Below, in pieces: positions 2,213 through 7,159 of a DNA stretch of 11,546 nucleotides. The translations under genes and the position numbers were made by a program. The stretch lies in IMG/VR virus record IMGVR_UViG_2703718868_000005. One strand, 5' to 3'. The DNA is from a virus. Taxonomy: Duplodnaviria > Heunggongvirae > Uroviricota > Caudoviricetes. The stretch's first letter is position 1. The number at the start of each line of letters is the position of its first letter. The notes beneath the pieces were generated by a model. It was not told the DNA's origin. It saw only the letters and a program-made list of their open reading frames with translations, and made no database searches.

Positions 2213-3262
2213 TTACCCGAGCACGCCAGTCGCAAAGGCGTGATCAAGAAAACGAAAAATTAACTCAATCTGAGAGCCGTACTTTTTCTCAAACTTCAGC
2301 GGGTCTGCATGAAGTTCGTTGTGGTGCTCCCGGCACAACGGTAGCGTGAAAATATCGTGGGCCTTTGTTCCCACTCCCCCCTGACCATGACCAATCAGGT
2401 GATGCGGATCGTCAGCTGGCTTACCACAACACGCACACGGCTGTGTCTTTACCCAGCGCGTGTATTTCTCATTAACCCAACGGCGACGTTTAGGCCGCCT
2501 CATGAACAATTCAGGAGACTCCGGATCAACGGCGATACTGACAACCGTTTTTTTCTGTGGTGGATTTTGTTGCTGGTGGACGTGAAGTGGCAGCGCAATA
2601 TTTTTTGTGCGCTGCTTCAGTATGCTGATGGCTGTCTGTTCTCCCGGTACGATGTCACTCTCACGGTATACGGAGCGGATTTTTTCCGCTGGTAATCCCA
2701 GCGAACGACGCGCTACTGCCTCAGGTAGTGCATCCACCACCTGATTGCAGGCCGCCCACCAGGATAATTCGGCCAGCGATAACTCCCTCTCCTGCGTACC
2801 GCTTATTGCGTGACGGATGACATCAATCATCCAGGCAACCAGATTCTGCTGAGCAAGTTGATCGAGTGATTCTGATGTCTGGTCGCGCAGCTGGTTGTCA
2901 CAGTGCCAGCACAACACCATCGCGCCGGTACCATAACGGTGAATGACGGTTTCGCTGTGATGATAATCGCCGTGTGGCCACTGGCAGGATTTCACGTGAC
3001 GTAATAACCAGTCAGACAGTGCACCTGCACCACCTGCTGCACGAATAACCCGCTCATCGCTGAAAAATGGCAGTAATGTTTTATCCTCTGCCAGCGGCTG
3101 GCGAACGGCAGGAACGACTCCGGACGGCAGACCGCGCATGTTTTTCGGTTCCGGCTCCACCAATATTCTGCCGTTATGGAATACTGACATTGATTCACGG
3201 CCTGGCTTAACGATAACCAGACCGAGTTCCGGTACCAGAACAGGTCGAAGTAATACCCGCAC
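2213..3262 (-). CDS. DUF968/YdfU-like prophage protein with a C-terminal HNH-like Cys/His motif (CACCGKP...HHLIGHG...CREHHNELH)
   Basis: 349-aa ORF (GTG start; alternative ATG at 3190). The C-terminal Cys/His cluster and the position upstream of rusA and Q match YdfU-type proteins of Qin-like prophages. Confidence 0.75.
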   Translation of the reverse strand: MRVLLRPVLVPELGLVIVKPGRESMSVFHNGRILVEPEPKNMRGLPSGVVPAVRQPLAEDKTLLPFFSDERVIRAAGGAGALSDWLLRHVKSCQWPHGDYHHSETVIHRYGTGAMVLCWHCDNQLRDQTSESLDQLAQQNLVAWMIDVIRHAISGTQERELSLAELSWWAACNQVVDALPEAVARRSLGLPAEKIRSVYRESDIVPGEQTAISILKQRTKNIALPLHVHQQQNPPQKKTVVSIAVDPESPELFMRRPKRRRWVNEKYTRWVKTQPCACCGKPADDPHHLIGHGQGGVGTKAHDIFTLPLCREHHNELHADPLKFEKKYGSQIELIFRFLDHAFATGVLG

Positions 3263-3979: not shown

Positions 3980-4037
3980 TTGCCTCCATAGTCCACATGG
4001 TGTAACACTATGTGTTATATAAAATGCAGAGGCAGGT
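3980..4037 (+). promoter_or_regulatory. Putative promoter/operator of the type II TA operon
   Basis: TTGCCT -35-like element (3980-3985), TATAAA -10-like element near 4018-4023 and an imperfect inverted repeat GTAACAC-N3-GTGTTAT (4002-4018) lie just upstream of the toxin SD GAGG. Typical site for antitoxin autoregulation. Confidence 0.35.
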
Positions 4038-4410
4038 ATGCGAATTTTCAAAAACGCCTGGTTTGAACGTTTCGCCCGAAAACATCGGATTTCCGATAAA
4101 TCGCTGCGCAAAATCGTGGAACAGGCCGATAAGGGGGATCATATCCGCAAATTTGGGTAGTGGTGTCATTAAACAAAGATTAGCCCGAAGTGGTGGCGGA
4201 AAATCAGGCGGTTACCGGACAATAATTTTTTACCGCGTTGCAGAAAAAGCCTTTTTCATCTACGCATACGCAAAGAATGAACGAGAGAATATCACTGCTA
4301 TAGAGGAAAATGCTTTTCGAAAAGCCGCTCCCCATGTCCTCAATCTTACTGATGAACAGCTGGCACAATTGATTCAACAAGGCCAGTTCACGGAGGTACC
4401 CAATGAGTAA
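4038..4410 (+). pseudogene. RelE/ParE-superfamily (HigB-2-like) toxin gene, frameshifted at a G5 run (4133-4137)
   Basis: Frame from ATG 4038 gives MRIFKNAWFERFARKHRISDKSLRKIVEQADKG, then a TAG at 4158. The rest of the toxin (IISANLGSGVIKQRLARSGGGKSGGYRTIIFYR...FFIYAYAKNERENIT) continues in the +1 frame to the stop at 4408-4410. Removing one G restores a single ORF of about 123 aa. Confidence 0.7.
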
Positions 4411-4720
4411 AAATTACCGCAGTGATGCACTTGCATCTGTACATGAAATGATGGAGTCACTCCATGATATCGGTGCAATCACAAAACAAACTATGCGCGA
4501 ATTCGATGAAACTTGTCTTCAGCCTGCGCCGGTAATGTCTCCGGAAAGGATCCGTGCACTGCGAGAACGAGAGCATCTGTCTCAACCTGTTTTTGCCAGA
4601 TACCTCAACGTCAGTAAAAACCTGATATCAGACTGGGAACGAGGAGTGAAACGCCCGGGAGGTGCAGCTCTTCGGCTTCTTTCAGTTGTCGAGAAAAACG
4701 GGATCCAGGTAATATCCTGA
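4403..4720 (+). CDS. HTH-type antitoxin (HigA-2-like) partner of the upstream toxin
   Basis: 105 aa. ATG overlaps the toxin stop (ATGAGTAA) and SD GGAGG sits 6 nt upstream. Motifs SQPVFARYLNVS...DWERG...PGGAALRLL match antitoxins paired with HigB-2-type toxins. Confidence 0.85.
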   Translation: MSKNYRSDALASVHEMMESLHDIGAITKQTMREFDETCLQPAPVMSPERIRALREREHLSQPVFARYLNVSKNLISDWERGVKRPGGAALRLLSVVEKNGIQVIS

Positions 4721-4822: not shown

Positions 4823-4978
4823 TTACTCCTCAGGTTCGTAAGCTGTGAAGACAGCGACCTCCGTCTGGCCGGTTCGGATTCGTACCTCGCAGAGGTCTTT
4901 CCTCGTTACCAGTGCCGTCACTATGACGGTTAAACAGATGACAATCAGGGCGATTAACATCGCCTTTTGCTGCTTCAT
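4823..4978 (-). CDS. hokD: Hok-family type I membrane toxin (HokD/RelF-like)
   Basis: 51 aa, MKQQKAMLIALIVICLTVIVTALVTRKDLCEVRIRTGQTEVAVFTAYEPEE, matching HokD/RelF as I recall it. SD AAGGAG upstream. An in-frame upstream ATG at 5035 gives the 70-aa ORF-track frame, at the position of mok. Confidence 0.9.
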   Translation of the reverse strand: MKQQKAMLIALIVICLTVIVTALVTRKDLCEVRIRTGQTEVAVFTAYEPEE

Positions 4979-5026
4979 AGCCTGCTTCTCCTTGCCTTTC
5001 GGCACGTAAGAGGCTAACCTACATGT

Positions 5027-5095
5027 GCAAAGCATGAAATTGGCCTCAGATTAATGTTAAGCGTCCTGCAAGACGCGTAATGTTAACTGGGGCTT
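5027..5095 (+). ncRNA. Possible Sok-like antisense RNA opposite the hok leader (position approximate)
   Basis: Inferred from hok/sok locus architecture. Weak promoter-like TTGCCT-17-TAACCT at 4992-5020 and a hairpin GCGTC-CTGCAA-GACGC at 5061-5076 on the plus strand. Exact ends not determinable from sequence alone. Confidence 0.2.
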
Positions 5096-5249
5096 TTCTC
5101 TGTCTGCCTTACGGCGGCATGCCCGAGGCAGACAGCCTCAAGCACCCGCAGCAATTCTACTTAACTCTTCTTTCCCCGCAAATCATTTTATCCCCGATGG
5201 TAATGTTCTCCCGATATGGGAATTCCCATATCAAGGTTAACTCAATCGG

Positions 5250-5801
5250 TTAAAGCTCCATTAATTTTCCGGCCAGTTCATCTCGTGGCATTACCAACCA
5301 TCCGCGCGATTTAAGCAAAGCCAGGGCTTCTTCAACCGTCACCAGCTGGCCAGGCGCATCACTTCGGATGAAGGCGGTTTTATCGTCACGGATCGCCAGG
5401 TGAAAATCGATATTCATTTTTCCCATAGCCCGCTCTTTCTCGTACTGGTTGAAGTAACTGTCTTCGAGTTTTTCGAATACTTCCCACGCCTGATCGGTTT
5501 CGAGCATTTTTGCATGACGGGCTGCTCCGCGTTCTGTCCAGAGGATGAGAGTGCGGGTTTTGGGAGAAATTTTCACCTCATTTTGCGACTCGTTTAAAAC
5601 TAGTCGCAAATTTTTGAGCTCATCACCAACAGCTTTAAAGAAGTGTTTTCCCTCAATAAATCGAGATTTATTTTCATGGTGATTCTGCTGTATACGGATT
5701 GCTTCTGTTCCGTAAAGGCGGGCGAGTAACTCAGTTGTGATTACAGGAATCTGGTTATAAGTGACAGGGGAAAGGTTTTTGACAGTAACTTGAGTCGTCA
5801 T
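5250..5801 (-). CDS. ORF6N-domain (KilA-N/antirepressor-like) phage regulatory protein
   Basis: 183 aa. N-terminal motif IPVITTELLARLYGTEAIRIQQNHHENKSRFIEGKHFF and later LILWTERGAARHAKML resemble ORF6N antirepressor domains. SD GAGGG about 8 nt upstream of the ATG. Confidence 0.75.
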   Translation of the reverse strand: MTTQVTVKNLSPVTYNQIPVITTELLARLYGTEAIRIQQNHHENKSRFIEGKHFFKAVGDELKNLRLVLNESQNEVKISPKTRTLILWTERGAARHAKMLETDQAWEVFEKLEDSYFNQYEKERAMGKMNIDFHLAIRDDKTAFIRSDAPGQLVTVEEALALLKSRGWLVMPRDELAGKLMEL

Positions 5802-5962
5802 GATAACGCCCTCTGGTTGATGAATTTAACTATCACCACCTTCAGGTCTCAATCATCAGGTGGCGAGACGTACAGGGTTGAGACTACCGGATCAACCAAC
5901 CGGCCAGCCTTTCGGCTGCCCCATACGCCTCACCATAATTCAGATGTGCGTGCGCATACGAC

Positions 5963-5987
5963 AATAAAAAACACGCTCGCGGCGTGT
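5963..5987 (-). terminator. Rho-independent terminator ending the replication-side operon
   Basis: Minus strand reads ACACGC-CGCGA-GCGTGT followed by TTTTTATT. Confidence 0.6.
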
Positions 5988-6072
5988 GTCTGTCGCGGTT
6001 GAATATCCGGGGTCTCAATCCCGACGGTCAACTCGACCGTGCGGTGAATATAGCCCCGGATTAGTAATTACG

Positions 6073-6156
6073 TCAACCCCAGCGGCAAATCGAATAAACC
6101 ACCAGCGCTACCGCCATTGCAACTCCTACCGTTACGAATGCCTCAGGCCTAGTCAT
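6073..6156 (-). CDS. 27-aa hydrophobic small ORF (MTRPEAFVTVGVAMAVALVVYSICRWG), candidate membrane peptide
   Basis: Its ATG overlaps the TGA stop of the upstream HTH gene (ATGA), with AGGATAG as a possible SD. One predicted TM helix. Followed by a structured region and a terminator. Not in the ORF track because it is short. Confidence 0.35.
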   Translation of the reverse strand: MTRPEAFVTVGVAMAVALVVYSICRWG

Positions 6157-6340
6157 CGTAAACTATCCTCAGCGCCAATCAGTCCGTTTCGCTTCAGGCA
6201 GTCCATCGCTTTATACGGTAATTTGGCTGACAGGCGAAAATCACCCTGCAGCATCAGGCTTATTCCCTTATCCCGGGCTTTCGCTCTGACCGCTGCCTCG
6301 CTACGACCAATCAGACTGCCGATACTTTCGACAGTCATCG
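6153..6340 (-). CDS. Small HTH-domain protein (SIGSLIGRSEAAVRAKARDKGISL)
   Basis: First ATG after the stop of the upstream 253-aa gene is at 6338-6340 (61 aa). The ORF-track frame begins at GTG 6488 and would overlap the upstream gene by 90 nt. Confidence 0.5.
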
Positions 6341-6397
6341 TTCCCGCGCACTGCCGGAGTATCAGAATTTCAGCCCGGCACCACGTCTTCCACCCAC

Positions 6398-7159
6398 TCA
6401 CCGCAGCTGTTCTCTGGTGGCGGTAATATCCCGGAGAATATCCCGGCACTTGTTCAGCTCCCGCAGCGCGGCGCAGACTCGCTCCCACTTCTGAACCTGA
6501 CCTTTTACCCGGCGCAGCTCGCGGTTAGCCACATGCAGCGATGGTAGAATCAGGTCATCTGCTTTCGTTTCGGTGACCGATGGCTGTAACTTCACAATGT
6601 CTTCCACGATTTCTGTTTTCATTTCTTCCTGTGTCGTCGTTTCCTGGACTGGTAACGCAACACCTGCTGGCTGAGGAAAGGCTTTACCATCGGTTTCCGC
6701 TACGGATGCAGCTTCCGGCTCTGCCGGTAAATCAGCGCCCGGTATGCAGTAACGAAATTTACCGTTCTGATTTACGCGTGCCAGGCGCCCCGTTGCTGTT
6801 ACGACCGCCAACGTGGAAGCAACCTTGCGAATGCTAACACCGAACTTATCCGCCAGTTCCTCACACGTTTTAGCCCCATCCTGACAGATAAACTCAATCA
6901 TCATGTCCGCGGTAACTTTTTGTTCGACCTCCCCGGTCAGCACATCCGGTACTTCAGACTGTGCTGGCTGCTCTTCGGTTACCCCGGATTCACCTTCACC
7001 AGCCAGAAACCAGGTGTGACCCGTTTTATCAACAACGCCATTTTTTTGGAGTTCCCACAGTTCGTTGAGAACTTCTTCACGGCTGATATCAAGCCGCGCC
7101 GCCAGTTCAACAGAATTGGCTTTACCCATCGCTTTCAGTGCATGCAATACGGTTTCCAT
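6398..7159 (-). CDS. Hypothetical phage protein with two winged-helix-like segments separated by an acidic linker
   Basis: 253 aa with strong SD GGAGGAAA upstream of the ATG. Located after the DnaC-like gene in the same operon. Candidate HTH segments [28 protein letters not shown] and [19 protein letters not shown]. Confidence 0.8.

Follow-up and report, generated by a model that had tools for sequence, protein, structure and literature searches.

The window analyzed here, an 11,546-nucleotide (nt) stretch of a caudoviricete genome (IMG/VR record IMGVR_UViG_2703718868_000005), contains on its minus strand a small open reading frame (ORF) of 27 codons, which extends from 6156 to 6073, ends in a TGA stop codon at 6075-6073 and encodes the hydrophobic peptide MTRPEAFVTVGVAMAVALVVYSICRWG. 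An initial annotation had described a 27-residue hydrophobic ORF whose ATG overlaps the TGA of the gene upstream, and this description proved accurate in its coordinates and in the ATGA overlap, which is preceded by a GAGGA core. We consider it probable that this small ORF is a genuine stand-alone phage gene, carried as a mosaic cassette and translationally coupled to the gene before it, whose product would be a transmembrane (TM)-only peptide acting on a membrane protein. The elements of the gene are the following:

6073 to 6156, minus strand: small ORF of 27 codons, MTRPEAFVTVGVAMAVALVVYSICRWG followed by the stop, with a predicted single TM helix at residues 6-24; the window carries the allele W3R
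6153 to 6156, minus strand: ATGA start/stop overlap, with the small-ORF ATG (6156-6154) lying over the upstream TGA (6155-6153)
6166 to 6170, minus strand: Shine-Dalgarno (SD) core GAGGA, 9 nt 5' of the small-ORF ATG and inside the final codons of the upstream ORF

Conservation of the small ORF

A length of 27 codons is by itself expected by chance; the conservation of the small ORF exceeds chance. In four other Escherichia coli loci the DNA is near-identical through the small ORF and identity collapses directly after its stop codon, which alternates in frame between TGA and TAA among the E. coli loci aligned. At locus L008 the DNA homology to the window comprises exactly the ORF (query 255-338, window 6156-6073), and the upstream gene there is an unrelated DUF551 gene ending in PEPPQEVNQ. 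We scanned IMG/VR with a degenerate pattern covering codons 1-7 only (120 loci) and took as control the matches of the same pattern to GTDB genome contigs (120 matches), which are nearly all chance occurrences, with one true copy in 120, and hence could serve as a null. Exactly 27 codons are kept in 103 of the 120 viral contigs as against one of the 120 control matches, and the mean hydropathy of residues 8-24 is 2.06 in the former versus 0.02 in the latter. Length changes among the approximately 110 family members of the phage scan comprise one in-frame deletion of two codons, one premature stop (25 residues) and one read-through (40 residues), and the scan contains two more short peptides (19 and 20 residues) that were unchecked against contig ends.

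The variants that we collected, 63 unique at the nucleotide level and 40 at the peptide level, all have 27 codons. The substitution analysis covered 64 unique nucleotide variants that differ at a maximum of 35 of the 84 positions. On a minimum spanning tree of these variants the 247 changes are distributed over codon positions 1, 2 and 3 as 58, 56 and 133 respectively (binomial p = 2.8e-11), and 104 of the 247 are synonymous as against 25.6% expected (p = 1.3e-8). The initial annotation had made its proposal depend on coding constraint and on retention of the ORF in homologous loci. The constraint is present in this third-position excess, and the ORF is retained, for example, at loci L006 and L007, downstream of an intact copy of the helix-turn-helix (HTH) gene considered below.

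The ATGA overlap is found at every copy examined, whatever gene lies upstream, and it is kept even in the subfamily typified by phage BP-4795 (MMNWPEAF), in which the ATG occurs one codon earlier and the peptide has 28 residues. This invariance supports the translational coupling suggested by the initial annotation. An SD-like core is present in 134 of the 136 family copies (AGGAGG in 74 and GGAGG in 49), with the GGAGG/GAGGA site located 7-9 nt before the ATG. The upstream genes display at least five unrelated C-termini, including ..LISxEDxLR, the ..PEPPQEVNQ of DUF551 proteins, the ..KNIEQEVNR of 933W L0139, EaA of the Vequintavirinae and others. Judged from these alignments, the small ORF is very probably an independent, conserved and self-contained gene cassette, the edges of which are its own start and stop codons.

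A non-coding explanation of such sharp edges would be that the 84 nt constitute a boundary sequence, i.e. a recombination linker between lambdoid mosaic modules in which the ORF is incidental. The location of the small ORF exactly at module junctions in many phages, and the near-identity of its sequence in many of them, would agree with this. However, copies with up to 35 of 84 differences, too divergent for homologous recombination, keep the 27 codons, the ATGA, the SD sequence and the hydrophobic pattern, and the third-position excess likewise speaks for coding; we therefore regard a mere linker as highly improbable.

The Kyte-Doolittle hydropathy over a 19-residue window reaches 2.35 at residues 6-24 of the window peptide (threshold 1.6) and 2.11-2.42 at the same residues in four divergent variants, all above the single-pass threshold. 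This hydrophobic core is flanked by W3-P-E on one side and R25-W26 on the other. The 40 peptide variants share M-x-W-[PS]-[ED]-[AV]-[FLI], Y21-[SV]-[ILV]-[CF] and W26, where the M-x-W-... motif and W26 were conditions of the variant search pattern. Of these 40 variants, 34 have G11 and 38 have A15; when the window allele is included the counts are 35 and 39 of 41, and Y21 is found in all 41. This is the predicted layout of a helix that crosses the membrane once: each interface carries aromatic or charged residues, and G11-xxx-A15 provides a face of the small-xxx-small type.

The window allele itself is unusual in its third residue. Its codons 2 and 3 (6151-6153 and 6148-6150, minus strand) read ACT AGG (T-R), whereas the other copies have ACC, AAT or AGC followed by TGG (x-W). 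Residue 3 is thus R in the window and W in all 40 other peptide variants collected, the M-x-W part having been required by the search pattern. Among the loci examined W3R occurs only in the window and in the identical locus of E. coli STEC1585; a prophage copy from O26:H11, which lies in the same chimeric context and is 98.9% identical over a 371-nt query, keeps W3.

The chimeric upstream ORF and the downstream RNA module

The initial annotation had paired the small ORF with a 61-residue HTH gene directly upstream. The 61-residue ORF from ATG 6338 exists, and the same frame is open from GTG 6401 (82 codons), where the Prokaryotic Genome Annotation Pipeline (PGAP) starts its feature. The comparisons described below indicate that this ORF is a chimera, organized as follows:

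6398 to 7159, minus strand: DUF1627 gene, the stop of which overlaps the chimera GTG at 6401 as GTGA
6153 to 6401, minus strand: chimeric 82-codon ORF, with an N-terminal part (6401 to ~6225) from the DNA-binding/HTH protein that normally comes after DUF1627
~6221 to 6153, minus strand: C-terminal part of the chimeric ORF, its last ~22 codons being the 3' end of an unrelated phrog_660-type gene
6221 to 6225, minus strand: recombination/deletion junction (approximate), ..GDFRLSAK / LPYKAMDCLKRNGLIGAEDSLR followed by the stop, inside the chimeric ORF

BLAST searches with 6410-6040 against 5426 E. coli genomes recovered two separate homology blocks, of which the first (query 1-190) is the 'DNA-binding protein' following DUF1627 and the second (query 186-334/364) is the 3' end of unrelated 'hypothetical proteins' together with the small ORF. 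Profile matches in the chimera are phrog_323 at residues 5-55 and phrog_660 at residues 58-82, and also phrog_30109. The intact DNA-binding homologues have 93-105 residues and their alignment with the window protein ends at ..GDF(R/H)xSAK. Rather than matching over its full length, the chimera aligns over residues ~1-58 only, the C-terminal ~35 residues of the homologues being replaced past the junction by LPYKAMDCLKRNGLIGAEDSLR and the stop, which is the C-terminus of phrog_660-type proteins. In the identical genome as well as in O26:H11 11368, PGAP marks the chimera as a pseudogene ('incomplete; missing C-terminus'), and the BLAST survey found the chimeric arrangement in 147 of the genomes. 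At the loci with an intact HTH gene (L006 and L007) DUF4406, ead/Ea22-like and other genes come next, and the small ORF is found several genes further downstream, after a DUF551 gene. According to these alignments, several genes were lost in a deletion that joined the HTH gene to the terminal ~22 codons of the gene usually found upstream of the cassette. Given that the upstream ORF was generated by deletion, the adjacency of the HTH gene and the small ORF is accidental, and the pairing has to be given up, the two being separated wherever we saw the HTH gene intact (L006 and L007). In the window as it stands, stop/start overlaps nevertheless link DUF1627 to the chimera and the chimera to the small ORF, so that the three form a coupled series. 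The case illustrates how a misleading "operon partner" can arise from fusion by deletion.

On the other side of the small ORF, nested inverted repeats and a strong terminator had been noted, and these belong to the following features:

6047 to 6076, minus strand: sigma-70-like promoter TTGACG-18-TATATT (10 of 12 matches), the likely promoter of the IsrK-like small RNA (sRNA)
5966 to 6040, minus strand: IsrK-like sRNA (Rfam RF01394, 51.2 bits against a gathering threshold of 50, a small margin; full-length model 1-77, E = 8.3e-9)
5856 to 5940, minus strand: C4 antisense-like RNA (Rfam RF01695, 69.4 bits against a gathering threshold of 45; full-length, model 1-87)
5250 to 5801, minus strand: ORF6N-domain antirepressor-type gene (PF10543, E = 1.9e-20), with its start within an ATGA

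The nested repeats are real, with UCCGGGG..CCCCGGA surrounding ACGGUC..GACCGU and a minimum free energy of -42.5 kcal/mol (z = -3.9; none of 200 shuffles as good), and so is the terminator, a stem at 5987-5971 followed by a T-run. The -35 hexamer TTGACG contains the TGA stop of the small ORF, and the -10 hexamer ends 7 nt before the start of the IsrK match at 6040. The IsrK-like sRNA holds the inner hairpin ACGGUC..GACCGU, a CGGGA..CCCCG hairpin and the intrinsic terminator, so that the block has a promoter and a terminator of its own and an antirepressor gene downstream. This IsrK/antirepressor block is common to many Shiga-toxin (Stx) phages at 85-90% identity and begins at ~6061, past the small ORF. 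A block of the IsrK type follows only 5 of the 136 small-ORF copies, which have 34 distinct downstream contexts; the others include hok/sok, toxin-antitoxin pairs, DUF4222-xis-int and an opposite-strand KilA-N gene. The downstream hairpins and terminator are part of an unrelated, independent module, the probable target of which is the ORF6N gene, separate from the small-ORF cassette.

This bears directly on the alternative, already raised in the initial annotation, that the small ORF is a regulatory leader or upstream ORF (uORF), the translation of which would control the hairpins, terminator and antirepressor while the peptide itself is irrelevant. Three points would agree with such a leader: 1) in the window the small-ORF stop lies inside the -35 hexamer of the IsrK-like promoter; 2) a read-through transcript can form the long UCCGGGG..CCCCGGA hairpin, 14 nt past the stop, in competition with the sRNA fold; and 3) uORF coupling operates in the related Gifsy-1 locus, though by a different ORF, orf45 (PMC4825925). 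However, since the IsrK block adjoins so few of the copies, scattered as they are over many contexts, a leader role is not the conserved function; moreover, a pure leader would have no need of the conservation seen in the amino-acid sequence and in the physico-chemical pattern. The leader alternative is hence not supported, and we assign it very little probability.

The outer stem strand UCCGGGG (6059-6053) lies upstream of the sRNA start and is absent from the promoter-initiated sRNA. As it lies 5' of that start, read-through transcripts from the small ORF would fold differently. The C4-like RNA occupies the place of 'orf45' in Gifsy-1, and the orf45-equivalent frame of the window is broken by stops, with ~13-16 codons left before the antirepressor ATGA. 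In Gifsy-1, orf45 is reported to be conserved in nucleotides and not in amino acids, and translation of the mRNA that arises by read-through of the short sRNA is activated in trans by that sRNA itself (PMC4825925). The arrangement in the window suggests that IsrK and a P1-immI-like (c4-icd-ant) system jointly control the antirepressor. The hairpins neighboring the small ORF are in this way reassigned to a known sRNA-controlled antirepressor switch in a prophage of the Shiga-toxin type.

Prophage context, distribution and annotation

The segment 5800-6500 of the window (701 nt tested) is 100% identical to a lambdoid prophage of the Shiga-toxigenic E. coli STEC1585. The early-right operon on the minus strand comprises, in order, cro-like, YdaT-like, replication O-like, DnaC-like and DUF1627 (7159-6398) genes, the chimera and the small ORF. 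The genes past the small ORF are those for the ORF6N antirepressor, hokD/sok, a RelE/ParE-HTH pair, DUF968, RusA and Q, and they include two toxin loci:

4823-5147, minus strand: hokD toxin gene and sok RNA (Rfam RF01794, 117 bits; hokD is in the annotation of the identical genome)
4012-4720, plus strand: overlapping genes for a RelE/ParE-family toxin (132 residues) and an HTH antitoxin-like protein (105 residues), known from annotation and opposite to the early operon

In the same neighborhood elsewhere we noticed an annotated 34-residue hydrophobic ORF, MSDDISLAMEGALAVIAVVGVYCLVVFLMDRLGN (L007, 5026-5130), and, directly past the DUF551 stop at L307 and L311, an unannotated 40-residue small hydrophobic ORF, MNKCNALLYAMVIGFGLAAG... 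It seems that the end of the ea/nin gene arrays gathers tiny membrane proteins.

The 84-nt sequence is present in 1631 of 5426 complete E. coli genomes (~30%), at 3104 places and with up to seven copies per genome. The carriers include O157:H7, sequence type ST131 and avian pathogenic E. coli (APEC) O1. Further, tblastn searches recovered it in 94 phage records, including 933W, where it lies after L0139 and before sokW/hokW, BP-4795, where it precedes DUF4222-xis-int, VT2-Sakai, ArgO145 and lytic Vequintavirinae. The small ORF is also found in 181 plasmids from E. coli, E. albertii, E. fergusonii and Salmonella, 174 of them non-mobilizable; those listed are mostly 90-100 kb in size and the one inspected is IncY. 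Its sequence matches thus span lambdoid and Stx phages, P1-like plasmids and lytic rV5-like Vequintavirinae. The CPS-53 prophage of E. coli K-12 (yfdT-ypdJ-torI), the one K-12 prophage checked, has no copy.

In every RefSeq or GenBank locus inspected the small ORF is unannotated, which bears out the expectation that ORF-length cut-offs would miss it. Some of the older GenBank submissions, few in number, do list the exact peptide, under the name 'bacteriophage protein' or 'hypothetical protein', and its sequence motifs were not found in the literature searched. With one to seven copies each, roughly a third of the complete E. coli genomes, those with O157:H7 Stx phages and those of ST131 and APEC strains among them, contain a conserved gene that is without a family description. 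PHROGs profiles gave weak matches only, phrog_4612 being hit at E = 0.019-0.45 with residues 1-23 of the peptide on positions 33-54 of the 57 in the profile. An obligate partnership with DUF551 was considered and rejected, as the small ORF comes next in only 13 of 80 DUF551 loci. Protein clusters built at '90% identity' join the 27-mer with DUF551 proteins of 121 and 185 residues that do not contain the peptide, apparently via partial or frameshifted calls such as GGESMTWPEAF.. and MDTITLDAATGTAAGGEMMNWPEAF... This grouping is a clustering artefact, with 'DUF551 domain-containing protein' given as a name for the 27-mer, and it poses a risk for annotation transfer.

Possible function and relation to known systems

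Several observations weigh against the interpretation of the small ORF as a functional gene for a membrane-acting peptide. Pfam, NCBIfam and PADLOC searches yielded no family match to the peptide, and neither they nor PHROGs gave a functional clue. The peptide was not found in the supplements searched of the Sakai ribosome-profiling (Ribo-seq) study and of the 'Cryptic Bacterial Microproteome'/enterobacterial microprotein catalogue; early phage genes are repressed in lysogens. The window copy in particular may be impaired or weakened, because W3R alters a residue conserved as W and the copy is located behind a pseudogene. Finally, the pairwise ratio of non-synonymous to synonymous polymorphism (pN/pS) is moderately low at 0.43, with 0.41 in the antisense frame that shares the third positions, and the substitution pattern alone leaves the strand unfixed.

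The strand can be assigned because the ATG, the SD sequence, the stop and the boundaries are conserved. A conserved coding unit on the other strand might be sought in the 146-residue plus-strand ORF at 5986-6426, which is open across the region, or in the antisense +1 frame that shares third positions and has much the same pN/pS as the sense frame. However, over the 84 nt of the small ORF the 146-residue frame would have taken 35 synonymous versus 212 non-synonymous changes, with its first codon positions the most variable, and we rejected it as coding. In the antisense +1 frame the window contains no ORF that reaches 20 residues, and its start would fall in the non-homologous flank. We find either form of this explanation barely credible.

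For the small ORF as a stand-alone coupled gene we envisage that ribosomes ending the upstream early gene would reinitiate at the overlapping AUG, and that the 27-mer would insert into the inner membrane as one helix. Expressed early in the phage cycle, this helix could then make helix-helix contact with a host or phage membrane protein in a modulator or exclusion-type role. A host-modulating or exclusion role is preferred over a structural or lysis function because the cassette ends accessory early-gene arrays (pL 'ea' and pR 'nin'), and because it is retained alike by temperate lambdoid phages, P1-like plasmids and lytic rV5-like phages. That three such different lineages of phages and plasmids have kept the gene suggests that it is of use at the membrane. 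A bolder version, which we put forward only tentatively and consider doubtful, is that the small ORF is the founding member of a widespread family of TM-only phage effectors, maybe within a larger 'M-x-W-P-E-A-F + TM helix' group spread over phages whose hosts differ widely in GC content, that binds a specific inner-membrane protein early in infection. Such binding might, for example, serve to block superinfection or to retune a transporter, sensor or protease of the host. If this were true, it would account for the retention of the small ORF by lambdoid, P1-like and lytic rV5-like coliphages alike.

With regard to such a larger group, IMG/VR contigs L022, L031, L076, L110 and L124 (GC content 0.40-0.65) contain short hydrophobic ORFs of 24-34 residues that start with M[NT]WPEAF and are otherwise unrelated. 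The M[NT]WPEAF ORFs outside the E. coli family come from contigs with a GC content of 0.40-0.66, several have 4-nt overlaps (ATGA/GTGA) to both neighbors and one is near a DUF551-like gene. The TM-like fraction is 4 of 13 among the matches outside the family versus 3 of 87 in the control (p = 0.005; small numbers). There may hence be a wider MxWPEAF-TM family of small proteins.

The initial annotation had also thought of a toxin-like membrane peptide. A membrane-damaging peptide akin to type I toxins would depolarize or permeabilize the inner membrane, leading to host shut-off or an abortive response, and in size and hydrophobicity the 27-mer does resemble peptides of the TisB, DinQ, ShoB and Ibs class. 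In addition, one of two related sequences comes directly after 48 of the 136 copies, and in the copies inspected (933W and L002) it is hok/sok, as it is also at L008. The neighborhood of the small ORF thus tolerates toxic peptides. However, in 5700-6500 there is no promoter-like site on the opposite strand, no Rfam match covers the ORF and no antisense partner is evident. As conservation ends at the ORF borders there is also no room for a conserved antisense RNA or a fold in the 5' untranslated region (UTR). The small ORF is the last cistron of an operon, reached via coupling, rather than the content of a tightly repressed mRNA of its own, and a genome may hold up to seven copies. Thus, of the membrane peptide as first proposed, the single predicted TM helix stands, whereas the type I hallmarks (antisense RNA, dedicated promoter and 5' UTR) are missing, and we think a toxin unlikely. 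The small ORF is a cheap and well-defined target for small-protein work.

Bacteria possess TM-only small proteins that modulate membrane proteins, such as KdpF (29 residues), MgtS (31), AcrZ (49), CydX (37) and YohP (27). The predicted peptide resembles these in its length, its single hydrophobic helix without a soluble domain, its interfacial aromatic and charged residues, its small-xxx-small face and in having been missed by automatic annotation. It shows no sequence relationship to them and differs in being phage-borne and mosaic, in its apparent expression through coupling where early phage operons end and in having no known partner. Membership in KdpF itself was rejected, the TIGR02115 scores being 13.9-14.7 bits against a cut-off of 26.85. 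With the type I toxins (Hok, TisB, DinQ, ShoB and Ibs) it shares a short hydrophobic peptide, and a real hokD/sok lies ~1 kb downstream in the window; unlike them, the small ORF has no antisense RNA, dedicated promoter or 5' UTR, is internal to an operon and depends on coupling.

The isrK-orf45-anrP system of Gifsy-1 (Hershko-Shalev et al. 2016, PMC4825925) is comparable to the downstream module and not to the 27-residue ORF. In both, an sRNA equipped with a promoter and a terminator of its own precedes a short conserved stretch that is not protein-like, which is followed by an antirepressor with its ATG in an ATGA, but the window differs in the C4 RNA match lying between, in the broken orf45 frame and in the ORF6N type of its antirepressor. 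Works on phage and enterobacterial small proteins ('Entero67K', PMC11188072; reviewed in PMC11323111) describe short hydrophobic ORFs under purifying selection that start a few nucleotides from an upstream stop. The small peptide is the same kind of object as the Entero67K microproteins, but its own sequence was not found in the supplementary text searched. It is one more case of a known class, the hydrophobic small ORFs missed by annotation (PMC11188072), and one with unusually clean evidence and a wide distribution.

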